This document shows positions 6,789 through 43,239 of a stretch of DNA of 64,000 nt, one piece after another. The DNA lies in contig DAOUAP010000035.1 of NCBI GenBank assembly GCA_034433165.1, positions 17,619 through 81,618 on the forward strand, in the 5' to 3' direction. The first letter of the stretch is position 1, and every line of letters starts with the position of its first letter. Origin of the DNA: Anaerolineales bacterium (GTDB taxonomy: Bacteria; Chloroflexota; Anaerolineae; Anaerolineales; Villigracilaceae). The notes under the pieces are model-generated. The model ran no database searches and was not told the DNA's origin. It saw only the letters and a program-made list of their open reading frames with translations. Made by a program: the position numbers and the translations under genes.

Positions 6789-7961
6789 TTATTCTGGTGC
6801 GCCAAATAAGACAACCAGTATGTTTTGGTTCATAAAACGCGGCGCATCACCCGGCCCCAGCCCCGGAACAAACTGCCCGAGGGTATAGCCGCCCGCCAAT
6901 GGAGTCTGCCCGCCCAGGACCTCATTCACGGCGGCCAGTTCTGCGCCAGGCGTAGATTGCAGCAAGGTTTGCCAGGCGGTATCGACCAGCACCAGCCCAA
7001 AGACAGGTGTCCATCCGCCGAGCGCATCAAGGGCTTGCTGTGCGGCGCCGCGAGCCGCGGTGAGGCATGCATCCGGGCTGCCGACCATGAGGAAAACGTC
7101 TGTGCCGTCGCGAATGGGCGCATTGAGCCGGAAAGACCCATCGGCTTCTATGCGCAGCACTGAACGCAGCAACAGGTCGCTGGTGCCGCGGCCCTGCTCC
7201 AGCCCCAGCGGGTAGATGCGTGCCAGGGTATTGAGCGGTGGGAAACCCCAGTCGCGCGCAGAATATCCGAAGATCTGTGCGTAAGACTCGTTGGCGGGGC
7301 GTCCATCCAGGGTGCGCAACCAAAACCCGCGCGAACGGGTGACGCGAAAACGGCTGCCGATGGGAAGCCAGCCATGCCCGTAGCCTGCCCCAACCTTGAA
7401 CTGACCCCGGATGAATGCGGCGCTCAGGCTGCCCGAGCCGCTTTGGGAACCGGCAACCAGCGATGACACGCTGTTGGCGGCATCCCCGCTGGCCAACCCA
7501 CCCAGGAAAGGAATGCTGCCGGGCAGGGCCGCGCAAAACTCTCCGGCATTGCCGTTGAATCCATCACCCCAACCGAGCACCAGTTGGGCAGGGGTTTGTT
7601 CGTAACTGAGCAGTTGGAAAAGTTTTTCAGCCGCCTCTTGCGAAGACTGGGCGTATGTGGGGAACCAGTGCGTTTCGGCGCGAAAATCGCTGCCCCCCAG
7701 CAGGGCCACGACCACACCATGTGCATGCTGCCCCTGTTGGGTCAGCCCGGCGGTGGCGCTGAACCCGATCATGGGCACGTTGCCGAGAATGCTGGATACC
7801 CCGCTGACCACTTGCTGCGCCTCATAGCGATAAGGGATGATGATGATGGCCAAACCTACCGGGCTGTTGTCCAACTGGTTGAGCGCCTGGTTGGCGGCCT
7901 GCATGCCGGCCTCTCGCCCTTCAATGGAATTGGCATATCCTACGCTGGCCTTCATACCCAT
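6789..7961 (-). CDS. FIST (N+C) sensory domain protein
   Basis: 390 aa. The N-terminal pattern VGYANS..GREAG.QAANQAL.....P.L.III and GFSATAG is typical of FIST_N. It starts 3 nt after the stop of the upstream kinase gene. Confidence 0.7.
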   Translation of the reverse strand: MGMKASVGYANSIEGREAGMQAANQALNQLDNSPVGLAIIIIPYRYEAQQVVSGVSSILGNVPMIGFSATAGLTQQGQHAHGVVVALLGGSDFRAETHWFPTYAQSSQEAAEKLFQLLSYEQTPAQLVLGWGDGFNGNAGEFCAALPGSIPFLGGLASGDAANSVSSLVAGSQSGSGSLSAAFIRGQFKVGAGYGHGWLPIGSRFRVTRSRGFWLRTLDGRPANESYAQIFGYSARDWGFPPLNTLARIYPLGLEQGRGTSDLLLRSVLRIEADGSFRLNAPIRDGTDVFLMVGSPDACLTAARGAAQQALDALGGWTPVFGLVLVDTAWQTLLQSTPGAELAAVNEVLGGQTPLAGGYTLGQFVPGLGPGDAPRFMNQNILVVLFGAPE

Positions 7962-7964
7962 GGG

Positions 7965-10900
7965 TTAGTTCTCCGAAATGGGGACAGTGAAATGAAAAGC
8001 TGTGCCTTTTCCCTTTTCACTTTCGAACCAGATCATGCCGCCCTGCATTTCCACAAGGCTCTTGGTGATGTTCAGCCCCAGCCCGGTGCCAGTGGCCATT
8101 TCTTTCGAGTATTCGGTGCGGAAGTATTGCTGGAAAATGTTCTTCTGGTCTTCGGGGCTGATACCAATGCCGGTATCGCGCACCCATACGTGAACAACTT
8201 CCGAAGGCCCGTTTTGGTCCCAGAGGTTGTCTGTTTTTTGCGCCCCAATGGTGATGCGCCCCTGGGCCGGGGTGTATTTGTGGGCATTGCTTACCAGGTT
8301 AACCATCACCTGGATGACGCGGTTGCGATCGGCCCATATTTTTGGCAACGATGCCGCCACCTCGAGCTGTACGGTCTGCTGCTTGTCGTCAATCTGGTGC
8401 TTGGTCGAGCGGATGACGTCTTCCACGATCTCGGCAATATCGACCGATTTGAAATCCAGCTTAAGTTTGCCAGCTTCGATCTTGCTCAGGTCGCTCAGGT
8501 CAGAAACGATGGTGTTCATGCGGTCCACGTTGCTGCGCACCGTGGAAAGGAACTTGACCTGATTCTCGTTGACCGGGCCAGCCATGCCGCCAATAACCAG
8601 TTCAGTATAGCCCTTAATGCTGGCCATGGGATTCTTTAGTTCGTGCGCCACAAAAGAGACGAACTGACTTTTGGCATTGTTTGCATTCTGAACCTGGGCA
8701 TACAACTGCGAGTTGGAAAGCGCAATGGCTGCATGGTCTGAAAGGCGGCTCAAGAAATCTTGCGCTTCGGCTTGCAGCGCATCGGCAGACAGGCTCTCGA
8801 GCAGAAACAACCCAATAACCTGGGATTCGCGCCGAATGGGGACGGCCAGTTGGGCGCGTGCGCCGCACAGGAAGGACCGGTCAGTCTCATTGCCATCCAT
8901 GGCGAAGCGCAACGGCTGGCCATTGGCCAACACATCGCGCAGGGCGGGGTGCGCCGCCGGGACAAGGCTGTTTTGGAGCTTTTCAAATGTCTCGCCCAGC
9001 CCATGTTCAGCGATCATCTGAAGCCCATCCTCATGCACAACGCCAATAAAACCAGCGTGCGCCTTGGATTGACGCATGGCCCACTCAAGCGTAATGCGCA
9101 TGGCGCGGTTAACTTCCAGGCTGGCGTTCAGTTCACGGTCGATGCGCTGCATTACCGAAAGTTCCTCCACACGGGCGGCCAGTTCCTGGTCTGTGAGGGT
9201 GTAAAGGCGCGCATTTTCAATGGCAACCGCCGCCTGCCCGGCGAAAGCGGTTAGCAGGGTTTCGTCTTCGGCGATAAATGGCAAGCCGCCGCGCTTGTTG
9301 ATGATTTCGATGACACCGATGATGCGCTCTTTGACTTCCATGGGTACGGCCAGCAGGGCGCGAGTCTGGAAACCGGTTTGCCGGTCTGGGCTGGAATTCC
9401 ACTGGATGGAATTTTGCGCTTCATTGACGATGACAGCCTGGCGGCTGGCGACCACCCGCCCCACCACGCCGGTTCCGGGCGGCAGGCGTTGCCCCACCAG
9501 GTTGCTGGCCACCGGGCCAACGGTAACGCGGAAGACCAGTTCGCCGGTCTGCTCATCGATCAGGAAAAGGCTGCCCGCCTCAGAATCCAGAATGCTTACG
9601 GCGCTGTCGAGGATGCTTTGCAGCAACGGTTCCGGGTCGAGCGTGGAAGCCAGTTGCCGCGCAATAACGTTCAGGGTGCTCAACTGTTGGGCGCGGCGTT
9701 CGGTCTCTTGCAGCAGGCGCGATTTGACAATAGCACCTGCTGCCTGGTCGGCAATCGCTTGCAACAGTTCCATCTGGGCGGAGGTATAGATGACACCCGG
9801 GTTATTGGAGCCTGCACTTAATGCGCCAATGGTATCGGCGCCTGTATTCAGCGGCACCCCTACCCACGCACCAAGACCCTGTCGCGGTGAAACCACACGG
9901 TAAAACTGGCACTCGCGCTGGAAATCTTGCGTGATGATGGGTCTGCGCGCAGTGATGACTTCCTGCTCGAGGGTGGTTTTGGGCGCAATGGCCTTGTTCT
10001 CCAGGGCATCCAGGCGGTCGTTGTCTTCGATACAAAACGCATAATACGTGTAGCCGCCGGTCTTGTTGGCCAGCGCCAAGTGGAAATCGGTGCCGGGGAT
10101 GATCTGCATGGACTGGGCATAGATCAATTCCAGGATGTCATCAAAATTCAGGGTCACATTGATGCCCTGGGCAATGCGCGCCAGCGCGTTCAATTCCTGG
10201 ACGCGCCGCTCCATCGTGTTGATGGTTTGCGACCGGGCCAGGGCAACGGCGGCCTGGTCGGCAAATGAGTCTAAAAACTCCAGGTCTTGTCCGGTATAGC
10301 TTTCACCCGAAAGGCGTTCGCCCATGGCCAACCAGCCAATGAGGCGGTGTGGGCCGGGCAGGGGGATGAACAGGCTGGTTCCCAGCAAGGCGATGCGCGT
10401 ACGCTCGCTCGCCAACTCGGCAGAAACTTGGGTGTCGTCAATGAAAAGCGGGGCATCCTCTTTGCCCAACAGGCGAACCAGGGCGCTGCCAAGCCCAAAA
10501 CGCACGTCGCTGGTGGGGCGGCCGCTTGCATCTGCTGATGCGGCATACTGGTCACTGACCGGGTCGTAAATGTAAATGTGCAAGTGCACAGGCGCAAGCG
10601 CTGCGCCGATGTTCTCTCGCAGGGCTGTGGTAATGCCGTTGGTGGTATTGATTGTGGTTACCGCACGGGCAAATTCTTGCAAACGGCGCTGGTAGGCGCG
10701 CTGCCCGCGGAAGAAAACCGTATCGATCAGTTCCTGCAGGCGCTGGCGCACCGGCAAAAGCAGGAATACCGAATAAAAGACCATCACGGCAATCAGCAAC
10801 GGGCTGTCCACTGCCATAGCCTGGCTGGAAACCAGGTTAAACCCAATAGTCAGGATGATGAACCCGGCGATTGCCATCAGCGAAAGCAAAGCATACAAAG

Positions 10901-11960
10901 CGCCCCGGCTGATGACGTAATCGGTGCGCAGCATGCGATAACGTGTCACGGTGTAGCCGGTCATGATCGGGAAAACAACCACCGAGGCCATCAGCAGGGG
11001 TGTAAATGACTGCTGCCCAAACACATTCAGCATGAACCACACCACCATCGGGCTGAAGCCGAGCGATCCAATTAGAATGGTGTTGGACTGCTGTCTGACG
11101 ATCCGCGAATCGGAAAAAATGCGGCGCTGCACAACAGCCACCAGAAACGCCAGCCCGCCTACCCCGGCCAGCACAAACCCATTGCGCCATGCCGCAGCAT
11201 AAGACAGCGGGTTCTGACGATCTCCCATTACGAACCATGTGCTCAAAATAATGACTGAAGCAATGAGGTACCCCGCCCACGACAGGTAGCGGTTACTGCG
11301 CACCACACGCATTTCCTGTGGAAAGATCATGGCGAGGTGAATAAGCGCCCCACCCAGCAGCGGGATGGCCGCGCTCCAAATGTAGGCAAATACCCCGGTG
11401 CTGACAATATCTGCATAACCGCCTGCAGCAATGGCGACCGAAGCGGCAAACACAGCAAATGCGCGCCCGGCCGGTTCGCTGCGCCGCATGTTCAAAATCC
11501 ACAATCCAGATGCGAGAAAGACCAACCCAATAATAAAAGGCAGGATGAAATATGTCACCTGGGCATCCAGGGTGAAAACACTCAACTGCACCTGGAAAAC
11601 CTGCTGCCCTCCCTGGGGTGTGCGCATGAGTATGGGGATTGTTTCGCCCGGAAAGTAACCCCGTAGCACAGATTGCAGTTGCGCCGGGCTGGAGACTGCC
11701 TGGTCATTGACGGCAAGCACCTGGTAGCCAAACCCGACCCCCTGGCTGGCTAGGTCCCAGCCGGGTGTCGTACCTTGGGGCGTCGCACCATCGACCACAA
11801 GGTTGTAGTTATACAAAGCGCCAGTAAAAGGCGTGGTGACAAATCCCCCCACCAGGAAAATAGTCACCAGCAGGATGATTGCAGCAAGGATCTGATAGGC
11901 AAGTACCAGTCCCAACAAAACCTGGTCGAACGGCGCTCGTTTGTGATCAGGACTGTTCAT
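7965..11960 (-). CDS. sensor histidine kinase: PDZ-like + multi-TM + multiple GAF + HisKA/HATPase_c
   Basis: 1331 aa. PDZ-like GYQVLAVNDQAVSSPAQLQSVL, about 8 TM helices, several GAF-like repeats, H-box SFVAHELKNPMASI, N box NLVSNAHKYT, G boxes DTGIGI and GTGLGLNI. Confidence 0.9.
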   Translation of the reverse strand: MNSPDHKRAPFDQVLLGLVLAYQILAAIILLVTIFLVGGFVTTPFTGALYNYNLVVDGATPQGTTPGWDLASQGVGFGYQVLAVNDQAVSSPAQLQSVLRGYFPGETIPILMRTPQGGQQVFQVQLSVFTLDAQVTYFILPFIIGLVFLASGLWILNMRRSEPAGRAFAVFAASVAIAAGGYADIVSTGVFAYIWSAAIPLLGGALIHLAMIFPQEMRVVRSNRYLSWAGYLIASVIILSTWFVMGDRQNPLSYAAAWRNGFVLAGVGGLAFLVAVVQRRIFSDSRIVRQQSNTILIGSLGFSPMVVWFMLNVFGQQSFTPLLMASVVVFPIMTGYTVTRYRMLRTDYVISRGALYALLSLMAIAGFIILTIGFNLVSSQAMAVDSPLLIAVMVFYSVFLLLPVRQRLQELIDTVFFRGQRAYQRRLQEFARAVTTINTTNGITTALRENIGAALAPVHLHIYIYDPVSDQYAASADASGRPTSDVRFGLGSALVRLLGKEDAPLFIDDTQVSAELASERTRIALLGTSLFIPLPGPHRLIGWLAMGERLSGESYTGQDLEFLDSFADQAAVALARSQTINTMERRVQELNALARIAQGINVTLNFDDILELIYAQSMQIIPGTDFHLALANKTGGYTYYAFCIEDNDRLDALENKAIAPKTTLEQEVITARRPIITQDFQRECQFYRVVSPRQGLGAWVGVPLNTGADTIGALSAGSNNPGVIYTSAQMELLQAIADQAAGAIVKSRLLQETERRAQQLSTLNVIARQLASTLDPEPLLQSILDSAVSILDSEAGSLFLIDEQTGELVFRVTVGPVASNLVGQRLPPGTGVVGRVVASRQAVIVNEAQNSIQWNSSPDRQTGFQTRALLAVPMEVKERIIGVIEIINKRGGLPFIAEDETLLTAFAGQAAVAIENARLYTLTDQELAARVEELSVMQRIDRELNASLEVNRAMRITLEWAMRQSKAHAGFIGVVHEDGLQMIAEHGLGETFEKLQNSLVPAAHPALRDVLANGQPLRFAMDGNETDRSFLCGARAQLAVPIRRESQVIGLFLLESLSADALQAEAQDFLSRLSDHAAIALSNSQLYAQVQNANNAKSQFVSFVAHELKNPMASIKGYTELVIGGMAGPVNENQVKFLSTVRSNVDRMNTIVSDLSDLSKIEAGKLKLDFKSVDIAEIVEDVIRSTKHQIDDKQQTVQLEVAASLPKIWADRNRVIQVMVNLVSNAHKYTPAQGRITIGAQKTDNLWDQNGPSEVVHVWVRDTGIGISPEDQKNIFQQYFRTEYSKEMATGTGLGLNITKSLVEMQGGMIWFESEKGKGTAFHFTVPISEN

Positions 11961-11989: not shown

Positions 11990-14931
<2,942 letters not shown>

Positions 14932-15037
14932 AATGTGTGATTCTACCACAGCCCCTTTTCGAACTGGTTTCGATGTCATAACAAAGGGTGCGTATAGCGC
15001 ACTTGGCCGTCTGACCCGCAAAAGGTACAATTTTGGC

Positions 15038-15847
15038 ATGACACAACACCGCTACCTGCCCGAAAGCGATCGCGTAAGCGTGCTTGTAGCAGTCATTTTG
15101 CTTGCTTTTGCACTGGTGCGGTTGATCGCGCTGCCAGAGTATCGCCTGGAGGCGCAATGGGGCACCCGTGACCTGGTCTTCACCCTCGACTTTGATGTTA
15201 TTGCCGCCTTCCTGATTGCCGGGCTGACCGCGACCGGGGCCGATTGGCTTTTGCGCAGTCATCCGGCGTTTCGCGGGGCGGCAGTGGAACACTGGCTGCT
15301 GCCGGCCCTTACCGCCTGGGCGCTGGGTATTCCACTCACCTCCCTGCCGGTAGGGCCGGTTTGGTGGGCTGCATTTGCGCTGGCGGGCGCGCTCATTGTG
15401 CTGGTGTTGCTGGCAGAGTATGTAGCCATCGACTCATCCGATTCCCGTTATGGCATTGCCGTGGCCGCCCTGACGGCGCTATCGTTTGCGCTCTTCCTCA
15501 TTCTCACCGTGGCACTGCGCTACACTGGCGCGCGCCTGTTTTTGCAGATCCCTGTGTTGGGAATTTTTGCCGCGCTGGTCAGTTTGCGCACCATGCACCT
15601 GCGCATGGATGGGCGATGGGAATACGGGTGGATGTCTGGAGTCGCCTTGCTGACGATCCAGCTGGGCGCAGCCGGGCATTACCTGCCTATGTCACCCATC
15701 CAATACGGGCTAATGCTGGCCGGTCCTACCTACGCCCTCACTGCCCTGGCGATTAATACCTATGAAGGTATTCCCCAACGCCGCGCTTTTATCGAGTTTG
15801 GGTTCACAGTGGTTCTGGTTGGGGCCCTGGCGTTTTTGATGGGATAA
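15038..15847 (+). CDS. polytopic membrane protein, unknown function
   Basis: The ORF track starts at 14933. I prefer ATG 15038 (MTQHRYLPE...). About 8 hydrophobic helices. Divergent from the previous gene across a 106-bp spacer. Confidence 0.6.
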   Translation: MTQHRYLPESDRVSVLVAVILLAFALVRLIALPEYRLEAQWGTRDLVFTLDFDVIAAFLIAGLTATGADWLLRSHPAFRGAAVEHWLLPALTAWALGIPLTSLPVGPVWWAAFALAGALIVLVLLAEYVAIDSSDSRYGIAVAALTALSFALFLILTVALRYTGARLFLQIPVLGIFAALVSLRTMHLRMDGRWEYGWMSGVALLTIQLGAAGHYLPMSPIQYGLMLAGPTYALTALAINTYEGIPQRRAFIEFGFTVVLVGALAFLMG

Positions 15848-17070: not shown

Positions 17071-17958
17071 CTATTCGTCGTTGTCGTCCATGCCTTTCTC
17101 GCTGGCCTGCCTGTAGAGTGCGCGCAGATTGCGCTGGTGCAGGGCTTCGGCCAACCCGCCCAGGTGCACGCGGCTCTTGCCGCATGTTTCAATTCCCACC
17201 TCTTCAAGGTATTCATCCGCAGACTTGCGCCGGATGGCTGTGCGCACCGCCTTTTTGATCGAAGAAATGTACGCCAGGTTTTCCTTCACCGCGCTTTCGA
17301 TCTCGCCGCGCAGGATGATATCGCCATGCCCCTGAACGATATTCTCCAACCCCATGCGCCCAATGCGTTTAATGGAGGCAGTGATCTCATCCACGTTACC
17401 GTCGACAATGTAAGGCAGGGGCATGAATGCATCCCCGGAAAAAAGGATGCGGTCCTCCTCGACAAGCACGGCAATGCCGTCCGGGCTGTGTCCAGGTGCG
17501 GGAAACAGGTTGAGGTTTTTCTTGCCAACCCGCAAGTTCAACTCGCCTTCTTCAAAGGTAAGATGGGGCAAAACGATTTTCACCTGGCGAAAGGCTGTGT
17601 TTTGTTTGCGAGTCGCCTCAAGTGAAGGGATGCCGCGTTCTTTAAGCAACTGGCGGCACAATGAATGTGAAATGATCGTTGCGCCCGGGAAGAAGCAATT
17701 ACCCCAGGTGTGGTCGGCGTGATAGTGGGTATTGATGATGTACCGGATGGGCACACCTAATTCGTGCTCCACATATTCACGGATGGCCAGGGTTTCTTCT
17801 GGCAGGGCCAGGGTATCTATCAAAACCGCCCATTGCGGGCCGGCAATAATGCCAGCAGTAACCTGCGCATACACTTCACTCTGGAACCAAAAAACATTTT
17901 CTGAAACGCGTTCTCGATGCATAAAATCCCTCAGGGTGTGATGGCATAAATCTAGCAT
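17071..17958 (-). CDS. MBL-fold metallo-hydrolase
   Basis: HYHADHTWGN (HxHxDH), later PGHSPDG and GD motifs. 295 aa. An alternative start at M13 is possible. Confidence 0.85.
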   Translation of the reverse strand: MLDLCHHTLRDFMHRERVSENVFWFQSEVYAQVTAGIIAGPQWAVLIDTLALPEETLAIREYVEHELGVPIRYIINTHYHADHTWGNCFFPGATIISHSLCRQLLKERGIPSLEATRKQNTAFRQVKIVLPHLTFEEGELNLRVGKKNLNLFPAPGHSPDGIAVLVEEDRILFSGDAFMPLPYIVDGNVDEITASIKRIGRMGLENIVQGHGDIILRGEIESAVKENLAYISSIKKAVRTAIRRKSADEYLEEVGIETCGKSRVHLGGLAEALHQRNLRALYRQASEKGMDDNDE

Positions 17959-18022: not shown

Positions 18023-18051
18023 TTGATTGCCCATTTGAGGCGTGATACACT
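18023..18051 (+). promoter_or_regulatory. sigma70-like promoter with extended -10, implying a near-leaderless transcript
   Basis: TTGATT (18023-18028), a 17-nt spacer ending in TGa, and TACACT (18046-18051). The ATG at 18061 is only 9 nt downstream and has no Shine-Dalgarno sequence. Confidence 0.4.
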
Positions 18052-18060
18052 GTATTTTGT

Positions 18061-19656
18061 ATGAGCGCAGATATCTTGGTCGTTACACCAAAGCCCAACC
18101 TGGGTGACTCCATCCGCAGTATGCTGTCGGGCGGGCGGTTCAACGTTCACATTACCAGTGATTTCAGCCAAGCCATCCGCCTGGTGCGGCAAACAGGCTG
18201 TCTGCTGGCCCTGCTCGATTCCGCGCTGGATGAGGTGGATATTTCGGTGCAGGATGTGGCCTACGCGCTCAAGCAGGTGAACGGGGACATCCACGTCGTC
18301 ATCCTGGCCAACACGTCAGATACACACAGTGCTGCTTCGTACGCTTCATACCCGGTGCTTTCCAAACCCATTCGCCTCGAAGACCTGCAGAGAATTGTCG
18401 CGCAAGTTTTCCCGCCCGAAGCGCCAGCCCCGGCAGCCATCGATACGCCTCCCACCCTCGAAGGCGACCACCCCTGGCTTACGGATGTGCGCCGCGCTGC
18501 ACAGCATCTTACCCGCCTCACGCTCGAATCGTCCGCACAAGCGGCGCTCATCACCAATGATAATGTGCTGTGGGCTTATGCCGGGCAGCTCTCGCAAGCC
18601 GCGGCCAACGAACTCTCGCAAATGGTCCAGCGTTACTGGGACTGGGGCAGCCACAACGACCTGTTGCGTTTTGTGCGCCTGGCCGCCACCGAACAGGCCC
18701 ACATGCTGTACGCCACACGCCTGACCACAACCATGATCCTGGCGCTGGTCTTCGACGGCGAAACGCCCTTCAGCACCATTCGCTCACAGGCGGGGCACCT
18801 GGCCGCATCGCTCGCATCGCAGCCCGACCCCGGCGAGGAGCCAGCCAACGACCTGCACGATGACGCGCGGTCCTTCCCGCACATTGCCACCCTGCTCGAA
18901 AACGTGCCGCCGCCCATCCCCGCGCCAAAGGCTGCGCCCACCCCGCCCCAGGCGGCAGAACCTGTTCCGGTTTCTGCGCACACCATGCGTCACTCGGTGG
19001 AATCGTCACCTTCTCAATTGCGAGGGGAAACAGCGCGCACAGAAATGCCGCCGCCCGCACGCCCGGCTGTGCTCGCTGCCGACCCTGAATCGCTGGCAGA
19101 AACGCGCCGCGCCACCCCGCTCGACGACCTGGCCGTCACCCGCAAGCAAGCTGCACGCCCGCCAGACTCCAGCCCGCAGGAATTGGCTAAAACGCGCCCC
19201 CAGCAGCCCGCTGAAGGGGATGTGCCGGTCAACCGAATCGTGCTCGAACCCGCTTCACCCGCCTTGTACAACTATAACTTCGCCTGCCTGCTCATCCCAC
19301 GTTTCGACACGCACCACCTGGTGGGCGACCTGGCTGACCGCCTGGGTGAGTGGGTTCCGCAGTTGTGTATCGCCTTTGGCTGGCGGCTTGAATACCTGTC
19401 CATTCGCCCAACCTACCTTCAGTGGGTGGTCAACGTACCGCCTTCGGTACCGCCCGGCTCGATCATGAAACAGGTGCGCCAGCACACCTCGGAGCGCATT
19501 TTCAAGGAATTTCCGCGGTTGAAAGATGAAAACCCCTCTGGCGACTACTGGGCGCCTGGCTATCTCATCATGGGGGGCTCCCAGCCACACCCGCCCAGGT
19601 TCGTCAAAGACTTTATTCAGCAAACGCGCCGGCGCCAGGGACTCGGCGAAAAGTAA
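18061..19656 (+). CDS. multidomain protein: receiver-like + Roadblock/LC7-like + Pro-rich linker + degenerate IS200-type Y1 transposase-like domain
   Basis: N-terminal ~115 aa have a receiver pattern (LLALLDS Asp, LSKP Lys-Pro, but VVTPKP instead of the acidic pair). The middle ~150-265 resembles Roadblock/LC7. About 270-400 is Pro/Ala-rich. The C-terminal ~130 aa align by eye to IS200/IS605 TnpA (YNFACLLIPRF, KEFPRLK, YWAPGYLIMGG), with RPTYLQWVV replacing the HUH segment and FVKDFIQQT replacing the catalytic-Tyr helix. Confidence 0.8.
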   Translation: MSADILVVTPKPNLGDSIRSMLSGGRFNVHITSDFSQAIRLVRQTGCLLALLDSALDEVDISVQDVAYALKQVNGDIHVVILANTSDTHSAASYASYPVLSKPIRLEDLQRIVAQVFPPEAPAPAAIDTPPTLEGDHPWLTDVRRAAQHLTRLTLESSAQAALITNDNVLWAYAGQLSQAAANELSQMVQRYWDWGSHNDLLRFVRLAATEQAHMLYATRLTTTMILALVFDGETPFSTIRSQAGHLAASLASQPDPGEEPANDLHDDARSFPHIATLLENVPPPIPAPKAAPTPPQAAEPVPVSAHTMRHSVESSPSQLRGETARTEMPPPARPAVLAADPESLAETRRATPLDDLAVTRKQAARPPDSSPQELAKTRPQQPAEGDVPVNRIVLEPASPALYNYNFACLLIPRFDTHHLVGDLADRLGEWVPQLCIAFGWRLEYLSIRPTYLQWVVNVPPSVPPGSIMKQVRQHTSERIFKEFPRLKDENPSGDYWAPGYLIMGGSQPHPPRFVKDFIQQTRRRQGLGEK

Positions 19657-19698
19657 GCCCAACCGGCGCTCCGGCGACATCCCTTCCCAGGAGCCGCC

Positions 19699-22567: not shown

Positions 22568-24871
22568 ATGCCCGGACGCGAAGAAGTTTTCCAGAAAGCG
22601 ATGAACGAAGGCCACTCGGCCGCCTGGGACCAGGAATGGGAGCAGGCGGCGGCGGCGTATCGCTCCGCCCTCCAAGAGATTCCAGACAACCCAAAAGCGC
22701 TTGCCAACCTTGGGCTGGCGTTGTACCAGCTCCAGAATTTTGAAGAGGCGATGAAAATCTACATGCGTGTGGCGCGTCTGACTCCCGATGACCCGATCCC
22801 GGTCGAAAAGGTGGCGCAGATCTCGGAACGCCTGGGAAACCTCAAGCAGGCCATCGATGCGGCCCTGGTGGCTGCCGATCTGTACCTGAAACTGCGCGAC
22901 CCGGAAAAAGCCATCGAGAACTGGCTGCGGGTGACCAGTCTCAACCCGGAGCACCTCACCGCGCATTCGCGCCTGGCCATGGTGCATGAAAAAATGGGGC
23001 AGCCCAAACAGGCTGTTATCGAGTACATTGCCGTGGCCAGCCTGTTGCAGCGCGCCGGCAACCCGCAAAAAGCGTCCGAATTGATCGAACATGCCCTGAA
23101 GCTTAACCCGAACAGCGCCGAGGCCCGCCAGGCCCAGGGGCTGATCAAAACCGGGCAATTGCTCCCCAAGCCGGTGCGCGCCAGGGGCGCAACCGGCCCG
23201 CTGCGCGTGGCCCAAGTAAAAGCGGCCGAACCGCAAAAGCAGGCGGGCAGCAACGAAGACCCGGTTACGCAAGCGCGCAAAAAAGCCCTTACCACGCTGG
23301 CCGACATCCTTTTTGAACTGACCGATGAAAGCCCCGAGGCCCAAACAAGGCGCGGGCTGCAAGCGATTATGAAGGGCACCGGCATGCTCTCGCAGCAAAG
23401 CGACCAGACCAAGATCATGCTACACCTCAGCATTGCCATTGATGCCCAGACAAGGAACAACGAGACCCAGGCTGCCGAAGAACTCGAACGCGCCCTGGAA
23501 ACCGGTTTGAAGCACCCGGCCCTATATTTTGACCTGGGTTACCTGCGATCCAAGACAGACCGCATGGAAAGCGCGCATCGCTTTTTGCAGCAGTGCATCA
23601 AACACGAAGACTACGGGCTGGCCGCGCGCCTGCTCAACGGCGACATCCTCGCCCGCCTGGGCCGCCACAAAGAAGCCTCCATAGACTACTTGGAAGCACT
23701 CAAAATTGCCGACGCCATGGTGGTGCCTGCCGACCAGACCGATACCATTCGCCAGTTGTATGAACCGCTCGTCGAAGCGCAATCGCGTGAAGAAGACGAG
23801 GCCCGCCAAATGCAACTATGCAGAAACGTGCATGACCTGCTCATGAAACCTGGCTGGCGTGAAAGCATGCTCAAAGCGCGCCAGCAACTCCCCCGCTCTG
23901 AAAGCGGTCCGCTGCCGCTGGCCGAAATCCTCATCCAGGCCCAGAGCAGCCAGGTGCTCGAAGCCATGAACACCATCAACCAGATGGCCCGTTCCGGCTG
24001 TCTGCGCTCTGCCATGGACGAAGCATTCCATGCGCTCACTTATGCTCCCACCTACCTGCCCCTGCATACCCTGATGGGCGACCTGCTCATCCGCGAAGAA
24101 CGTATCCCCGATGCCATCGGCAAGTTTTCGGTCATTGCGCATGCCTATAGTGTTCGCGGTGAAGCCGGGCAGGCCATTGGACTTTACCGGCGCATCCTGC
24201 AGTTGGCGCCCATGGACCTCTCGATGCGCACCCTGCTCATCGAACAGCTCACAGCCCGCGGGCAGCAGGATGAGGCCATCGCCGAGTACATCGAGCTGGC
24301 TGACACCTACTACCGCCTCGCCGAGTTGGACATGGCCCGCAAGGCCTATACCACCGCCCTGCGCCTGGCCCAGCAACCCAATGCCGACCGCGGCTGGAGT
24401 CTGCGCATCCTTAACCGCATGGCCGACATTGACATGCAGCGCCTGGATTGGAAATCGGCCTTGCGGGTTTACGAACAGATCCGCACCATCAAGCCAGATG
24501 ATGAAACCATCCGCCGCAGCCTGATCGATCTTAACTTCCGTCTGTTCCAGCGCGCCCAGGCCGTGGCCGAGTTGGAAGGATATGTTGCTTACCTCGAAAC
24601 CAACCGACAGGGTGAAAAGGCCCTTGCTTTCGTGCAGGCATTGCTGGAAGAGGAACCCGATCGCACAGAACTGCGCCGGGTACTGGCCACGCTCCACCAG
24701 CGCGCCGGCAATATGGAAAAGGCTGTGGAACAACTCGACATGGTCGGCAATGCCCTGATGGATGCTGGTGACCGTGAAGGCACCATCGAAGTCATTACCG
24801 TCATACTCACCCTCAACCCACCCAACGCCGAGCAATACCGCCAGGTGCTGCAAGATTTGCAAGCGCGCTAA
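22568..24871 (+). CDS. tetratricopeptide (TPR) repeat protein
   Basis: 767 aa of repeated ~34-aa A/L/Y-rich helical units (for example AYRSALQEIPDNPKALANLGLALYQLQNFEEAMKIY). 43-nt gap after polA with no terminator. Confidence 0.85.
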   Translation: MPGREEVFQKAMNEGHSAAWDQEWEQAAAAYRSALQEIPDNPKALANLGLALYQLQNFEEAMKIYMRVARLTPDDPIPVEKVAQISERLGNLKQAIDAALVAADLYLKLRDPEKAIENWLRVTSLNPEHLTAHSRLAMVHEKMGQPKQAVIEYIAVASLLQRAGNPQKASELIEHALKLNPNSAEARQAQGLIKTGQLLPKPVRARGATGPLRVAQVKAAEPQKQAGSNEDPVTQARKKALTTLADILFELTDESPEAQTRRGLQAIMKGTGMLSQQSDQTKIMLHLSIAIDAQTRNNETQAAEELERALETGLKHPALYFDLGYLRSKTDRMESAHRFLQQCIKHEDYGLAARLLNGDILARLGRHKEASIDYLEALKIADAMVVPADQTDTIRQLYEPLVEAQSREEDEARQMQLCRNVHDLLMKPGWRESMLKARQQLPRSESGPLPLAEILIQAQSSQVLEAMNTINQMARSGCLRSAMDEAFHALTYAPTYLPLHTLMGDLLIREERIPDAIGKFSVIAHAYSVRGEAGQAIGLYRRILQLAPMDLSMRTLLIEQLTARGQQDEAIAEYIELADTYYRLAELDMARKAYTTALRLAQQPNADRGWSLRILNRMADIDMQRLDWKSALRVYEQIRTIKPDDETIRRSLIDLNFRLFQRAQAVAELEGYVAYLETNRQGEKALAFVQALLEEEPDRTELRRVLATLHQRAGNMEKAVEQLDMVGNALMDAGDREGTIEVITVILTLNPPNAEQYRQVLQDLQAR

Positions 24872-24950: not shown

Positions 24951-24982
24951 AGCCCGGGTGCGCAACCCCGGGCTCGTTTTTT
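24951..24982 (+). terminator. intrinsic terminator after the TPR gene
   Basis: AGCCCGGG (24951-24958) pairs with CCCGGGCT (24967-24974) and is followed by T6 (24977-24982). Confidence 0.6.
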
Positions 24983-31435: not shown

Positions 31436-32608
31436 TTAGATTGGCCGCAGTGCGCCGGTATGCACTTTGATTGCCTTCTGGGAGATTTCGGCGGCTGCCT
31501 GCTTGAGGATCATGCTGGTCGTATCGGTGGGGAATTTGGTGGCGACCGGCACATGCAGGTTGTTTGCCAGGGTGAAGTTTTCCATCATGTAGGGTACAGT
31601 GATGCGAATTTCAATACCAATCTGCCCTTCTGCTTCCGTCTTCGACATACCCTGCAACCCCACCGCTCGGTTGAGGATGGGATAGATGCGGGTGCGGTCC
31701 ACACCCTGCGACAGCAGGTAAGCCAGCATGCGTTTGGTCAACTGCACAGAGCTTGTATCGGTGCCCACCACCAGCGCCACCGCCTCCGCCTTCTGGATGA
31801 GCGGCATGCTGATGCGCGAGAGTGTGCGCCCGAAATCGATCACCAGGTAGTTGAAGGCCTGGCGCATGCCAGCCACAAGATCGGGGATGCGCTCGGCATG
31901 TAAGCGGGAGGCAAGGTCTGGGTTGGGTGCGCCGGGCAGCAGGTGAAAACCCCAGCCGTGTGGCACCATCAGCGTCTTACGGAAGAAATCGCCATTTACC
32001 TCTGCCTGGGACATCTGGCTGGCTTCGACCACGCTGAATTTTTCCTCGGCGCCTACAATGGAGGCAATCGATCCCATAGGCAGCACCATGTCGAGCATGC
32101 TCACCGTCGATTGGGTCATGCTAAAGGCCAGGCTTTGGGCCACGTTGGCGCACAGCGATGAGGTGCCTACACCACCTTTGGCGCTCAGGAAGACACACAA
32201 CAGACCCTTGTCATCCTTTTTCTGTTTGTTGGCGCTCTCGAAAAGCAAGCGCGGCACAGATTCGGCTACGCCAAGCGCAGCCATGCCAGATTTGCCGAAG
32301 TATTCGTTGTAACCGGCCTTGATGCAACGCTCCATTTCGTCCGGCTCGTTTTGGTTGCTGATGGCGATGATGGGCGTCAGCCCAAAGCGCGGGTCGCGCC
32401 TGAAGTGCTGCACAAACTCCACTGGTCCATAGTCTGGCAGGGTGGTATCGCAAATGATGACGCTTGGCAGGTAATCGTTGGAGCGCATGATGCCATCTTT
32501 GCCGTTGGGCGAAGTGAACACCTTGTATCCCCGCTTGCGCAATAATTGGGCCAGCAAATTGCGGCTGGCTTCGTCCGAGTCGATGAGCAGGACAACGATA
32601 TCAGACAT
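31436..32608 (-). CDS. response-regulator receiver fused to CpaE/TadZ-like (MinD/ParA-type) ATPase
   Basis: ATG 32608 (MSDIVVLLIDSDE...) is preferred over the ORF-track start at 32632. Receiver residues are present (DSDE, VIICD, IIAIS, GK). Deviant Walker A SAKGGVGTSS has the signature Lys, but the GK[ST] Lys is replaced by Thr, as I recall for CpaE/TadZ proteins. Confidence 0.75.
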   Translation of the reverse strand: MSDIVVLLIDSDEASRNLLAQLLRKRGYKVFTSPNGKDGIMRSNDYLPSVIICDTTLPDYGPVEFVQHFRRDPRFGLTPIIAISNQNEPDEMERCIKAGYNEYFGKSGMAALGVAESVPRLLFESANKQKKDDKGLLCVFLSAKGGVGTSSLCANVAQSLAFSMTQSTVSMLDMVLPMGSIASIVGAEEKFSVVEASQMSQAEVNGDFFRKTLMVPHGWGFHLLPGAPNPDLASRLHAERIPDLVAGMRQAFNYLVIDFGRTLSRISMPLIQKAEAVALVVGTDTSSVQLTKRMLAYLLSQGVDRTRIYPILNRAVGLQGMSKTEAEGQIGIEIRITVPYMMENFTLANNLHVPVATKFPTDTTSMILKQAAAEISQKAIKVHTGALRPI

Positions 32609-32738
32609 GCAATTTCCTTTCTGACAAGGCAATAATTACGTGTGAATAATCTCTCTTAGTCTATACCAAAAAGATGAACGGAGTCAATCAAATTGGGAAT
32701 CACGTATGCGCTTGCAAGGAATCGGGGGTATTGCGCCG

Positions 32739-40241: not shown

Positions 40242-41222
40242 TCAATCAGATACTTTATTACCAGGCTTGAGAAGATCGCTGTTGTGTTGGAGTATGGACT
40301 GCTTGTTGACCGCCAGGCACTCTGGCCAGGGCTGTGCATCGAGCGATTGCTGCCCGGCGAGATAATAATAGAGCATACCTTTGGCTTTAGAAAACAAGCC
40401 CATATTTTGGATGGCTTGTGGCATGCGCTCGGCTACTGCCAGTGTGTGTCGATTGGCAAACGGTTTTATTAAAGGATTATAAACAATTCTTTGCCGAACG
40501 GGATAGGACATATATCCCATGTAGAACTTGAAGCTATCCACCGAGGCGGGGGCATCCAATGAGTGCAGCCCGTAATGGATGGAACGCACTCCGGGCCGCT
40601 CCAGGGCGTTTTGTGTAACCTTGAAGGTTAGCACGTTATTGACACGGTAATTCAAAAAATCCCTGCTAGATTGTTGATACAGGATGTGATACCAGTCGTC
40701 AATTTGTACACTTAGCAGTGAGGCGCCCAGCTTTCCGTTTACGAATGCGCCCCAGGCTTCGAAGCCAGGCAATCCCTGTGCGGCGCGACAACGGCGCTGC
40801 CAGCTTTGTTTTGTTACGGCTGCGTTTCGCCCCTGGCGCGCCAGCGTATCTGACAACAGGTTCCAGCCTTCTTCTGCCAGGGTTTCAAAATCTATGGGTG
40901 TTACCTCGCAGTGCTGCAATCCCTGGCGCACATGGTTTCGCGCGTTGCTTTTCAGATCGACGAAGTCGTAGGTTGGACGGTTGTAAATGTTGTGGTAACT
41001 TACATAGCCTTCCGGGCTGTTGAGCGGCGTGGAATACCGCAAACCCAGTGCCTTATGCGCCCCAAACAGGAGCTTTAACTCACTTTCTTCTGGGCGCACC
41101 AACCAGTGGTACGGAAAAGCCTGAAAAACCCGCACAGATTGATTGAACCAATAACTGCTCTCGGTTCTTACAACAAGGTAACCCTGGCGCTTAAGCCATT
41201 CGGCAAAAGTTTCTGCGTTCAT
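40242..41222 (-). CDS. FemAB/CelD-like (GNAT-fold) acyl- or aminoacyl-transferase homologue, paralogue A
   Basis: 326 aa. 28 of the first 40 residues are identical to the next ORF. Layout (ARNHVRQG..., GFEAWGAF.NGKL.AS.L, SVDSFKFYMGY) resembles FemAB-type proteins. Confidence 0.6.
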   Translation of the reverse strand: MNAETFAEWLKRQGYLVVRTESSYWFNQSVRVFQAFPYHWLVRPEESELKLLFGAHKALGLRYSTPLNSPEGYVSYHNIYNRPTYDFVDLKSNARNHVRQGLQHCEVTPIDFETLAEEGWNLLSDTLARQGRNAAVTKQSWQRRCRAAQGLPGFEAWGAFVNGKLGASLLSVQIDDWYHILYQQSSRDFLNYRVNNVLTFKVTQNALERPGVRSIHYGLHSLDAPASVDSFKFYMGYMSYPVRQRIVYNPLIKPFANRHTLAVAERMPQAIQNMGLFSKAKGMLYYYLAGQQSLDAQPWPECLAVNKQSILQHNSDLLKPGNKVSD

Positions 41223-41227
41223 GGCGC

Positions 41228-42223
41228 TTAACCCTGTGAAAAATCTTCATCGACAAACCGCAGCGATCCGCCAGAGTCGCCGGTGCTTCCCAGAAAGTTA
41301 GCACGATGCTGGTTTAGAACCTTGGGCCACTCTTGCTGCGCCAATGCCAATTTGCCCTGCATATTGAACAGTAACATACCACTTCCTTTGGCTAAATGAT
41401 AATCTTTTGGAAAAACTTTTCGCAATTGTGTAAGCAGTAAATGACTAAGCGGGTTGGATAACGGCTCGAGCCAGGGGTGGAAGAGAACGCGCTGGCGCAC
41501 CGGAACAGGCTCATAACCCATCCGAAACTTAAACTCATCCACGCTGCCGGGTGCATCCAAAGACTGCAGGGTGTAAAAAATGGAGCGTATGCCAGGTCTT
41601 TGCAGTACAGCCCGGGTTACTTCATAGGTCAGCGCATGGTTGATGCGGTATTTCAAAAAGTCGCGATGTGACTGCTGGGAAAGGAATTCGCAACAATCGC
41701 CGATCTGCACAAGCAGAAGGGATGCCACCAACCGGCCGTCATAAGTTGCCCCCCAGGCTTCGAAGCCCGGAATTTCAGCCGCCAGTATACACCGTCGATG
41801 CCAGGCTTGTTCGGTATGGCTGCTGCGCCGCCTTTGTCGGTCCTCAGTATCTTTTTCTAAAAACCACCCTTCTTTGGCCAGGCGCTCAAAGGTGATTGGT
41901 TTAATAACACAGTGTTTCAAGCCAACCTGAATATTATGCCGGGTGCGCTTATCCAGGTCAACTACCGAATAAGAAGAATTCTCAAGGATCACGTGGTAAC
42001 TGATACATCCCTGTGACGCATCAATGGGGGTGGAATAGCGCAGAGCAACCACGCGCTTCGATTGTATCAGGTGTTCCAATTCAGCTTCTTCGGGGCGAAT
42101 AACCCAGTGATAGGGAAAAGCCTGCAGCACATGCGACTCTGTGTTATACCAATAGCTGCTTTCAGTGCGCACCACGGCATATCCCTGGCAGCGCATCCAT
42201 TCGGCAAAATTTTCCGGGTTCAT
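41228..42223 (-). CDS. FemAB/CelD-like (GNAT-fold) homologue, paralogue B
   Basis: 331 aa, tandem paralogue of 40242-41222 with a 5-nt intergenic gap. Same conserved blocks (VVRTESSYW, QAFPYHW, LRYSTP, PGFEAWGA, SLDAPxSVDxFKF, PVRQR). Confidence 0.6.
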   Translation of the reverse strand: MNPENFAEWMRCQGYAVVRTESSYWYNTESHVLQAFPYHWVIRPEEAELEHLIQSKRVVALRYSTPIDASQGCISYHVILENSSYSVVDLDKRTRHNIQVGLKHCVIKPITFERLAKEGWFLEKDTEDRQRRRSSHTEQAWHRRCILAAEIPGFEAWGATYDGRLVASLLLVQIGDCCEFLSQQSHRDFLKYRINHALTYEVTRAVLQRPGIRSIFYTLQSLDAPGSVDEFKFRMGYEPVPVRQRVLFHPWLEPLSNPLSHLLLTQLRKVFPKDYHLAKGSGMLLFNMQGKLALAQQEWPKVLNQHRANFLGSTGDSGGSLRFVDEDFSQG

Positions 42224-42237
42224 GCCATCTGCATCCT

Positions 42238-43239
42238 TTATAGTTGCCTGAGCACCCAGTTGCGATATTGTTCACTCTTGGGGGATTTCGCAAGATCAAT
42301 CAGCCTGCCAAGTACGGAGCTACTTGCCATGGATATTCGAAATATGTGAGCATCTTGGCAGCCAAATTTTTCCTTATATTGCTCGGCATACCCTCCAAAA
42401 TGCAACGTGTGGACTCCCTGGCGTTTAAGCATCTTAACGGTTTCCCAAGTCAGGAACTCGTTGGGGCGGAGGCACTGGTACTCATGCCAGCTGGCAGCGC
42501 CCCAAAAGACAGATGTGCTGTTTTGTACGAGAAATAGCCCTGTGGCAATACTTGGACCTTTAGTTAAGCGGACGCGCACCAACCACAGGCTGCCCGTTGG
42601 CAACATGGCGCGAATCATAAGTTTTACATTCTCAAGTCCAAATGCCGGGGCAAGCGCATGGCGGCGCATGACATCGCAATATTGGGCATAGTACTCGTCT
42701 GCAAATCCCGGGTCCTCAACCATTTCAACGACCAACCCATTTTTTTCTGCCTTGCGGATGTTTGTTCTGCAGGCATGTTTCATATTGCGGAAGAGAGCAT
42801 CTTCACTGGGGGTCAGGTCGAGCATGAACCACATCAGCGGCTCCACCCGATAGTGCAGACCTTCCATGTCATCCGAGCGGATATTGGGATCTATGATCTC
42901 AAGGTAATGACAGTGCAATTGGTGAAAAGCAAAATCGGGTAATGCATCCAGAACCGCCCGGCGTGAAATTTCTGGACTGAGATTAAAACCCATAAAGTAA
43001 GTGGTCCAGCCGCGAAAAGGGCTTCCTAATATGCGCACCCCAAACTTTTCGGCGATCAACCCAAAAAAATAGCCGCACAGATGCCCATCGTCGAGCACAG
43101 CGGCAACAACAGGCTCCAGCGGCTGTTTTTGAGACAAGAACCGCAGCCAGGCTGGCATTTGAAAAATGTTGGATTGTCCAAACTGCGCCGTCATCGCCCA
43201 ATCCAATTGTGAAAACTTGATGTGTTCGAACTTAATCAT
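42238..43239 (-). CDS. FemAB-family (peptidoglycan-bridge-type) aminoacyltransferase-like protein
   Basis: 333 aa. NMKHACRTNIRKAEKNGL, LFLVQNSTSVFWGAAS, LRPNEFLTWETVKMLKRQGVHTLHFGG resemble FemAB/FemX family blocks. Confidence 0.7.
   Translation of the reverse strand: MIKFEHIKFSQLDWAMTAQFGQSNIFQMPAWLRFLSQKQPLEPVVAAVLDDGHLCGYFFGLIAEKFGVRILGSPFRGWTTYFMGFNLSPEISRRAVLDALPDFAFHQLHCHYLEIIDPNIRSDDMEGLHYRVEPLMWFMLDLTPSEDALFRNMKHACRTNIRKAEKNGLVVEMVEDPGFADEYYAQYCDVMRRHALAPAFGLENVKLMIRAMLPTGSLWLVRVRLTKGPSIATGLFLVQNSTSVFWGAASWHEYQCLRPNEFLTWETVKMLKRQGVHTLHFGGYAEQYKEKFGCQDAHIFRISMASSSVLGRLIDLAKSPKSEQYRNWVLRQL

Follow-up and report, generated by a model that had tools for sequence, protein, structure and literature searches.

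An apparently domesticated, inactive IS200-type Y1 transposase domain in a multidomain protein encoded beside polA in Anaerolineae

The DNA analyzed here is a stretch of 64,000 nucleotides (positions 17,619 to 81,618 of contig DAOUAP010000035.1, assembly GCA_034433165.1), assigned to an Anaerolineales bacterium and referred to throughout, at its full length, as the window. The gene of interest encodes a protein of 531 residues and lies directly upstream of polA, the gene for DNA polymerase I (Pol I), which is followed in turn by a gene for a protein composed of TPR repeats. From N- to C-terminus, the protein comprises a receiver-fold domain, a Roadblock/LC7 domain, a long disordered linker and a domain with the fold of the IS200-type Y1 transposases (TnpA). 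This last domain is almost certainly a domesticated and catalytically inactive derivative of such a transposase. The start codon of the open reading frame (ORF) is considered right, since the homologues start at the same methionine. The features of the locus are collected in Table 1.

Table 1. Coordinates of the gene, its domains and motifs, and the adjoining features, given as positions in the window.
Feature	Position	Strand	Basis or remark
Whole gene, 531 aa: probable pseudo-receiver, Roadblock domain, disordered linker and inactive Y1 transposase-like domain	18061-19656	+	
Receiver-fold domain, aa 1-117; D53, K102 and P103 present, T9-P10 at the acidic pair	18061-18411	+	
Roadblock/LC7 (MglB-like) domain, aa 138-252	18472-18816	+	AlphaFold, Foldseek
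Pro/Ala-rich acidic disordered linker, aa 253-403, with TR motifs T360-R361 and T378-R379	18817-19269	+	
Short linear motif of the linker, FPHIATLLENVPPPIP	18877-18924	+	Family consensus LPPISELLGDVPPPxP
Inactive Y1 (IS200-type TnpA) fold domain, aa 404-527	19270-19641	+	Pfam, Foldseek
HUH-position codons TAC CTT CAG (Y452-L453-Q454)	19414-19422	+	Alignments to 2f4f and ISDra2
Nucleophile-Tyr-position codon TTT (F518)	19612-19614	+	Alignments to 2f4f, 2fyx and ISDra2 Y132
-35-like hexamer TTGATT	18023-18028	+	Read from the sequence; family consensus cTTGcc/TTGATT
Extended -10 element TGATACACT, ending 9 nt 5' of the ATG	18043-18051	+	gTGATA(A/C)ACT in relatives
Gap between the gene and polA, 42 nt, with GGAG Shine-Dalgarno of polA and without hairpin or terminator	19657-19698	+	
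polA, DNA polymerase I, 941 aa	19699-22524	+	NCBIfam DNA polymerase I equivalog, 1079 bits
All-TPR protein, 767 aa, third gene of the conserved triad	22568-24871	+	TPR families only (Pfam)
Terminator-like hairpin and T-run 3' of the TPR gene	24951-24974	+	8-bp stem, 7 GC pairs

Domains of the protein

The relationship of the C-terminal domain to the Y1 transposases is evident at the levels of both sequence and structure. Residues 403-520 matched the Pfam family Y1_Tnp (PF01797) with E-values of 1.7e-9 to 1.2e-10 and 38 bits, or 42 bits for the domain alone, all above the gathering score of 23. The NCBIfam equivalog for IS200 (NF033573), with a cut-off of 55 bits, was not reached, the scores being 45.3-49 bits. 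Solved structures of IS200-type transposases (2fyx, 2f4f, 2ec2, and 2xo6 and 2xm3 of ISDra2) were matched both by phmmer and by a profile of the family. The AlphaFold model of the domain (pLDDT ~90) was superimposed by Foldseek on the TnpA proteins of IS200, ISDra2 and IS608 with TMt values of 0.70-0.80 (2fyx, 2ec2, 2f4f, 2xm3 and 2vjv). An original prediction, made by eye from the sequence alone, had proposed this fold for the C-terminus on the basis of the segments YNFACLLIPRF, KEFPRLK and YWAPGYLIMGG, and had placed the replaced catalytic residues in TYLQWV and FVKDFIQQT; all five segments are found in the ORF, and the fold is upheld by the searches with profiles and structures.

The positions required for catalysis in these enzymes are occupied by other residues. 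In residue-by-residue alignments, the histidine-hydrophobic-histidine (HUH) motif, which reads H-I-H in 2f4f and H-V-H in ISDra2, corresponds to Y452-L453-Q454, while alignments with the transposases of known structure place F518 at the nucleophilic tyrosine and T522 at the metal-binding glutamine located four residues further on. The replacements are themselves conserved: among 87 close relatives, the Y452 position is tyrosine in 83, the L453 position leucine in 83 and the Q454 position glutamine in 84, with F518 retained in 86 and T522 in all 87. The predicted catalytic loss thus holds for the window protein, in which the glutamine is replaced as well, but the change from tyrosine to phenylalanine is not shared by the entire family. 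In 97 diverse representatives, the tyrosine position is phenylalanine in 62 and tyrosine in 35; none of the 97 combines an intact H-x-H with the tyrosine in one protein, and the lone representative with an H-x-H motif (H-L-H) has phenylalanine at the tyrosine position. Because 35 of these proteins keep the tyrosine and none of them has both elements, the loss of the HUH motif looks ancestral, and the replacement of the tyrosine looks like a later event in part of the family.

In terms of charge, the Y1-like domain is the only basic domain of the protein, with an isoelectric point (pI) of 9.3 (family median 9.5) versus 4.1-5.8 for the other parts. The conserved C-terminal sequence QTRQRQGL was considered as a possible motif for binding of the beta clamp and was discarded, as by eye it fits neither QL[SD]LF nor QxxLxxF.

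The N-terminal domain was modelled by AlphaFold with a pLDDT of ~95 as alternating beta and alpha elements. A search with the single sequence gave 19.7-21.6 bits for the Pfam family Response_reg, i.e., below its gathering score of 30.2. The family profile matched receivers in the Protein Data Bank (PDB) with an E-value of 1.5e-9, and the pseudo-receiver FrzS was also among the matches. Alignment with Escherichia coli CheY by hhalign (E=3.5e-5, with a CheY sequence entered by hand) paired D57 with D53, K109 with K102, and the acidic residues D12/D13 with T9/P10. A receiver-like domain with the phospho-acceptor aspartate and the Lys-Pro positions, lacking the N-terminal acidic pair, had indeed been predicted, and D53, K102, P103 and T9/P10 are all observed. 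Among the 97 representatives, the position of Asp53 is aspartate in 94, and that of the lysine is lysine in 53 and arginine in 29. The positions of the acidic pair are threonine or serine in 91 and proline in 62, and the position equivalent to T87 of CheY is variable. The domain is probably a pseudo-receiver, because the acidic pair that binds magnesium is gone in essentially all members. The further suggestion that the protein is under signalling control is doubtful for the same reason, the pair being replaced by T/S-P nearly throughout the family, even though Asp53 is practically invariant.

Genes of signal transduction also occur at other places in the window. Beyond gyrB, on the minus strand, positions 7965-11960 encode a GAF-HisKA histidine kinase of 1331 residues with three GAF domains, which adjoins a gene for a FIST-domain protein (6789-7961, minus strand); the kinase gene lies outside the conserved gene order analyzed here. 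A 398-residue protein encoded at 31436-32632 (minus strand) has an N-terminal receiver that passes the Pfam threshold, with no output domain recognized.

The middle domain was recognized by its structure. The AlphaFold model of residues 130-262 (pLDDT 80, and 80-90 in the full-length model) has the order of elements a-b-b-a-b-b-b-a. All 50 of the 50 PDB matches listed by Foldseek are Roadblock folds, including MglB, LAMTOR/p14/MP1 and the C-terminal domains of the Rag/Gtr proteins. The top matches were MglB (6hjm, 1j3w and 3t1r), LAMTOR and 3kye, with E-values of ~5e-6 and a probability of 1.0. The Pfam family Robl_LC7 was not matched by sequence even at E<=10, and the predicted Roadblock/LC7-like domain is thus borne out at the level of structure. 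For the full-length model, the best Foldseek matches in the PDB were RagA/RagC and Gtr1/Gtr2 (E ~6e-9), with TM-scores of only 0.17-0.33, since the order of the domains is alike and their arrangement is not. No P-loop was found in the protein.

The linker between the Roadblock and Y1-like domains is 19% proline and 15% alanine, with a pI of 5.0 and a pLDDT below 50. The Pro/Ala-rich linker of the original prediction is therefore present, but it is ~150 residues long and not 130. Its length varies from 90 to 455 residues across the family, and this accounts for the size of the members of 700-841 residues, in which additional domains were sought and none was found. Within the linker, the motif FPHIATLLENVPPPIP (residues 273-288) stands out: 87 sequences show no variation at L279, P283, P285 and P287, and the motif as a whole is 57% identical to the window protein, versus 29% for the entire linker. 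Two T-R motifs form further conserved islands. In total, the four-part architecture claimed for the protein is supported by Pfam, Foldseek, the profile searches and the AlphaFold model.

Distribution and gene order of the family

Relatives of the protein are numerous. A search of 5.8 billion clustered proteins (clustering at 90%) returned more than 2347 homologues. Almost all of the top 120 are full-length matches, with a query coverage of 91-100% and identities of 45-77%. When the C-terminal domain alone was used for an exhaustive scan of 1.84 billion representatives at 50% identity, 401 proteins were detected at E<=1e-30, and among the matches listed the domain is always located at or near the C-terminus. 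In the GTDB collection, with one genome per species, a relative is encoded in 403 genomes. The 80 listed among these (loci L001-L080) represent 80 different metagenome-assembled genomes (MAGs) with one locus each; apart from two, they bear the label Anaerolineae, Anaerolineales, Anaerolinea or Chloroflexota. The two exceptions are L044, an unclassified "bacterium", and L080, whose label, Syntrophothermus sp., is that of a Firmicutes MAG and probably reflects a binning error.

Conservation is distributed unevenly along the protein. In relatives with ~46-78% identity over the full length, the identity to the window protein is 73% in the Roadblock domain, 71% in the Y1-like domain, 37% in the receiver and 29% in the linker; by this measure the Roadblock domain is the most conserved part. 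The gene is single-copy and vertically inherited and, as judged from these sequence comparisons, under strong purifying selection across the class Anaerolineae.

The context of the gene is likewise that of a chromosomal host gene. Searches of 2.9 million viral contigs and of 72,556 plasmids yielded no relatives. Within the window there is no second copy of the gene and no family of repeats of the repetitive extragenic palindromic (REP) type, and the locus lacks tnpB, an upstream hairpin and paired subterminal hairpins; the immediate neighbours are polA and a gene for an MBL-fold hydrolase. The absence of tnpB, of a second copy and of flanking hairpins had been stated in the original prediction and holds in the window. 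An active or decaying insertion sequence (IS) was considered and rejected on account of the lack of repeats, the single locus per assembly, the conserved flanks and the lack of viral and plasmid copies. The names given to these proteins in the source databases are "IS200/IS605 family transposase", "transposase", "REP element-mobilizing transposase RayT", "RayT/response regulator" and "hypothetical protein".

A survey of relatives for the fusion and for its linkage to polA, as had been proposed, was informative on both counts: nearly all of the best 120 homologues are full-length, and polA lies directly 3' of the gene in 62 of the 80 loci. The TPR gene is next after polA in 47 of the 80, with many loci ending before that point; no specific NCBIfam model passes for its product. 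On the other side, the MBL-fold hydrolase gene is conserved as the upstream neighbour in just 21 of the 80 loci. The junction with polA has thus been more durable than the one on the upstream side. Close relatives (64-77% identity) share with the window the entire block that runs from gyrB through plsY, the MBL-fold hydrolase gene, the gene itself and polA to the TPR gene. In ~10 loci with sufficient downstream sequence, polA is absent from the 3' side; eight of these are from closely related genomes (L003-L007, L015, L017 and L024), where the gene faces a convergently oriented RadA/Sms-like gene of DNA repair, with LysR-family and CCG/4Fe-4S genes upstream.

A promoter of uniform geometry precedes the gene in 75 of 78 related loci, where cTTGcc or TTGATT is followed, after a spacer of ~17 nt, by gTGATA(A/C)ACT ending 6-10 nt 5' of the ATG. 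A Shine-Dalgarno-like motif (GGAG, GAGG or AGGA at -18 to -3) was found in none of the 78. The messenger in the window is taken to be leaderless or nearly so, because the -10 element ends 9 nt before the ATG and no Shine-Dalgarno motif is present, and the family-wide pattern implies that this property is conserved. The near-leaderless transcript of the original prediction thus gains support from the relatives. The window promoter was missed by a generic sigma-70 scan, since it scores only 8/12.

Transcription into polA is less uniform than the gene order. A short gap free of hairpins separates the gene from polA in the window and in the closest relative, and polA is equipped with a Shine-Dalgarno sequence of its own. 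A relative of 64% identity has a gap of 161 nt containing a hairpin without a T-run, and in most other relatives a terminator-like hairpin with a T-run occupies the gap. In one super-clade (L008-L013, L019-L023, L027, L033 and L035), TTTTATGGTAAATTAAnCC stands immediately 5' of the polA ATG and looks like a separate polA promoter of the leaderless type; a distinct conserved hairpin, CTTTCCTCTTTC...GAAAGAGGAAAG, lies ahead of it in these loci. The claimed linkage to polA therefore holds as to adjacency, and for the window also as to the 42-nt gap without a terminator, while co-transcription is confined to the clade of the window, because most relatives have the terminator-like hairpin. The gap between polA and the TPR gene contains no terminator-like hairpin in most relatives. 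In the window, a strong hairpin of this type is present only 3' of the TPR gene, at 24951-24974, where the transcription unit probably ends.

The hairpin in the gap of the relatives (loci L030-L080 and L081-L196; e.g., positions 2930-2949 of L077) was analyzed further. Its stem, CGCAGAG...CTCTGCG, is shared by seven protein clusters with mutual differences above 30%, while the loops vary widely, and in one locus the stem bears a compensatory change (GCGGAG/CTCCGC). Where present, the stem pattern is found a single time per locus, with few exceptions between the gene and polA. Of 116 metagenomic occurrences of the exact form with a TATAAT loop, 106 lie between a homologue of the gene and polA. 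In the same clusters, much weaker conservation is seen in the terminators that follow the TPR gene. The hairpin is absent from the window (19657-19698), and in other clades the gap has unrelated stems, although the Y1-like domain remains 55-70% identical.

With its A-tract, stem and T-tract, the hairpin is built like an ordinary intrinsic terminator, and it is read as the terminator of the gene. It is also a candidate ligand of the Y1-like domain. Three other identities were considered and rejected. A dispersed element of the REP type does not fit with the single occurrence per locus and the position of 106 of the 116 exact copies; a role of the TATAAT loop as the -10 box of polA is not supported, since a TTG at -35 spacing accompanies only 3 of 113 copies; and a known RNA family is not indicated, as no match was obtained in Rfam. 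No upstream counterpart of the hairpin was found.

Known systems and possible roles

The IS200/IS605 TnpA proteins (IS608, ISDra2 and Sulfolobus IS200; 2vjv, 2xm3, 2f4f and 2ec2) share both fold and sequence family with residues 404-527, and the structural core, including W497, the G/S-Y motif and the basic helix, is kept. In contrast to these enzymes, the domain carries Y-L-Q for HUH, phenylalanine for the tyrosine and threonine for the glutamine. It makes up a quarter of a multidomain protein of 531 residues, and its gene is single-copy and syntenic, with neither tnpB nor a pair of left-end and right-end hairpins. The fold is thus that of TnpA, yet every functional mark of membership is lacking, i.e., the HUH motif, the tyrosine, the glutamine, the equivalog score and the organization of an IS. 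The closest single structure is DR_0177 of Deinococcus radiodurans (2fyx; TMt 0.80, root-mean-square deviation 2.3 A), whose HUH motif reads Y-V-H and thus shows the same change of the first histidine to tyrosine as the Anaerolineae family. Unlike the window protein, DR_0177 is a stand-alone protein of 143 residues that keeps the second histidine and the tyrosine.

Domesticated transposases are well known in eukaryotes. The RAYT (TnpA-REP) proteins have been called the first transposase domesticated in prokaryotes (PMC8266576), and they resemble the present case in that a Y1 domain is encoded by a single-copy host gene rather than by a proliferating IS. The RAYTs, however, keep the HUH motif and the tyrosine, are active nucleases and are flanked by REP arrays, whereas here the catalytic set is lost, REPs are missing, and receiver and Roadblock domains are present. 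A classification of the TnpA-Y1 proteins in 2018 discarded sequences without the HuH motif or the tyrosine as "non-functional" (PMC6006769).

The Roadblock part invites comparison with other systems. The middle domain has the same a-b-b-a-b-b-b-a fold as MglB and other Roadblock proteins (6hjm, 1j3w, 3t1r and 3kye), and the combination of a receiver fold with a Pro-rich linker recalls the RomR-MglC-MglB module. MglB is the GTPase-activating protein of MglA. The present protein differs from MglB in lacking a sequence match to Robl_LC7 and an adjacent gene for an MglA-like GTPase, and in being fused to a transposase-derived domain. In the Rag/Gtr GTPases (RagA/C and Gtr1/2), an N-terminal alpha/beta switch domain precedes a Roadblock domain, in an order like that observed here; the N-terminal domain here has instead a CheY-like receiver fold. 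Because it has no P-loop, this resemblance is regarded as an architectural analogy and not as evidence of homology.

By analogy, the nearest conceptual precedent for the retention of a dead HUH-type fold as a DNA-binding module is found in viruses. The origin-binding domains of the SV40 large T antigen and papillomavirus E1 have an HUH-like fold without catalysis and serve in DNA binding; they are derived from HUH proteins of the Rep type, bind double-stranded origins and are fused to superfamily 3 helicases. No description of an architecture like the present one was found in the literature searched, in agreement with the original prediction, and it is not mentioned in a survey of prokaryotic small GTPases and MglB proteins.

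Our preferred explanation starts from the domesticated, inactive Y1 domain and assigns to the protein the role of a non-enzymatic adaptor or sensor that would couple DNA structures, such as lagging-strand gaps and hairpins, to processing that depends on Pol I. The basic Y1-like domain would not cut DNA and, in view of its ancestry and charge, may have retained the binding of single-stranded, hairpin or fork-like DNA by the ancestral TnpA. The TnpA of IS608 localizes to stalled forks, interacts with the beta clamp, and binds fork-like DNA as well as, non-specifically, double-stranded DNA (PMC5027513). The Roadblock domain would dimerize the protein, as in MglB and LAMTOR, and could form, together with the pseudo-receiver, a platform for protein interactions. 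The short motifs of the linker would draw in partners, of which the TPR protein encoded nearby and/or Pol I are plausible candidates, and its acidic character could additionally mask the basic domain. For this explanation as a whole, the domesticated domain and the proposed mechanism taken together, we see slightly less than an even chance; its proposal of a nucleic-acid adaptor linked to Pol I is offered tentatively and with somewhat less confidence.

Several observations weigh against it. Gene adjacency is the sole link to Pol I; the hairpin in the gap of most relatives and the apparent separate polA promoter of one super-clade mean that co-transcription is not conserved; and in one subclade the gene is not adjacent to polA and is convergent with radA. 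The Y1 fold could serve merely as a dimerization or protein-binding module. The near-invariant Asp53 fits poorly with a purely structural pseudo-receiver, and a gene for a partner GTPase of the Roadblock domain was not found nearby.

A bolder form of the explanation would have the dead TnpA domain still recognize hairpins of DNA or RNA, which would make it a non-catalytic sensor of DNA structure and the first such HUH transposase in bacteria. It might act genome-wide on lagging-strand hairpins and gaps, recruiting or regulating Pol I, or locally on the CGCAGAG-loop-CTCTGCG hairpin and T-run between its own gene and polA, in which case the hairpin might be a relic of the right end of an IS, reused to control read-through into polA. 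We consider this form unlikely.

Among the rival explanations, an atypical transcription factor of the response-regulator type comes nearest to the preferred one, and is improbable without being far-fetched. The dead HUH fold would then be the DNA-binding output domain, acting through double-stranded DNA or an extruded hairpin on the polA and TPR genes, and in most relatives its site might be the hairpin in the gap. The order of domains, with a receiver fold at the N-terminus and a basic domain at the C-terminus, is classic for response regulators, and the viral origin-binding domains provide a parallel for the output domain. A stem conserved across several deep clades and specific to this very spot (106 of 116), while the terminators 3' of the TPR gene in the same clades are much less conserved, also argues for such a site. 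However, the hairpin is missing from the window and its close relatives, the stems of other clades are unrelated despite the similarity of their Y1-like domains, the acidic pair needed for phosphorylation is missing, and the hairpin itself resembles an ordinary intrinsic terminator, whose TATAAT loop has no -35 partner. By contrast, a protein-only scaffold of the MglB/RomR kind, which would be engaged in polarity, the cytoskeleton or the regulation of small GTPases in filamentous Anaerolineae, would relegate the Y1-like domain to a second dimerization or interaction module and the adjacency of polA to inherited gene order without functional meaning.

Such a scaffold is in keeping with the closest structural relatives of the middle domain (MglB and the Roadblock domains of LAMTOR and Rag), with the top matches of the full-length model (RagA/C and Gtr1/2, with a Roadblock domain placed after an alpha/beta switch domain) and with the match of the profile to the pseudo-receiver FrzS. 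It also recalls RomR of Myxococcus, a receiver with a Pro-rich linker that acts together with MglB and MglC, and a long disordered stretch bearing short conserved motifs is characteristic of hub proteins. Against this, no GTPase gene was detected in the annotated part of the window (~3.4-32.6 kb) or in the annotated loci L007 and L197-L199, the protein itself is without a P-loop, and rearrangements that separated the gene from its upstream neighbour in most lineages left the junction with polA intact. Moreover, the basic Y1-like domain equals the Roadblock domain in conservation, which suggests that the former has a ligand of its own. The scaffold thus seems unlikely, and more so than the transcription factor. 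That the protein is an IS200/IS605 or RAYT transposase, either still functional or only recently decayed, as the names in the databases and the match to Y1_Tnp would have it, has next to no probability. The HUH motif, tyrosine and glutamine are all replaced by residues that are themselves conserved, the score remains below that of the IS200 equivalog, and the gene is single-copy in a chromosomal synteny that is conserved across a bacterial class. In addition, it has neither tnpB nor paired subterminal hairpins nor REP arrays, and it does not appear in the viral and plasmid collections. The refuting case of an active IS that the original prediction had named, i.e., multiple identical copies, was not encountered in the window or in the 80 listed loci, each from a different assembly.

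In prokaryotes, the accepted example of domestication in the Y1 class, RAYT/TnpA-REP, is still an active nuclease. Here, a dead Y1 domain is strongly conserved throughout a bacterial class, as part of a multidomain protein whose gene order is tied to DNA polymerase I. If the binding of DNA structures is true, the protein would offer a handle on lagging-strand and repair intermediates in Anaerolineae and a clear bacterial case of transposase exaptation, as well as a natural HUH module that binds hairpins without cutting them, of possible interest for HUH tags. Counts of mobile elements in Chloroflexota metagenomes are inflated, because hundreds of entries of this family are named IS200/IS605 or RayT transposases.

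Two further groups of ORFs in the window were recorded. On the minus strand, positions 40242-43239 contain three tandem ORFs of ~330 residues that look paralogous, and the first two of them are linked by the direct repeats D3 and D5, which lie 1001 nt apart. Positions 13921-15847 contain two conserved ORFs resembling membrane proteins, one of 372 residues on the minus strand and one of 304 residues on the plus strand, neither of which has an NCBIfam match; a relative of the 304-residue ORF carries the Pfam domain DUF5656.

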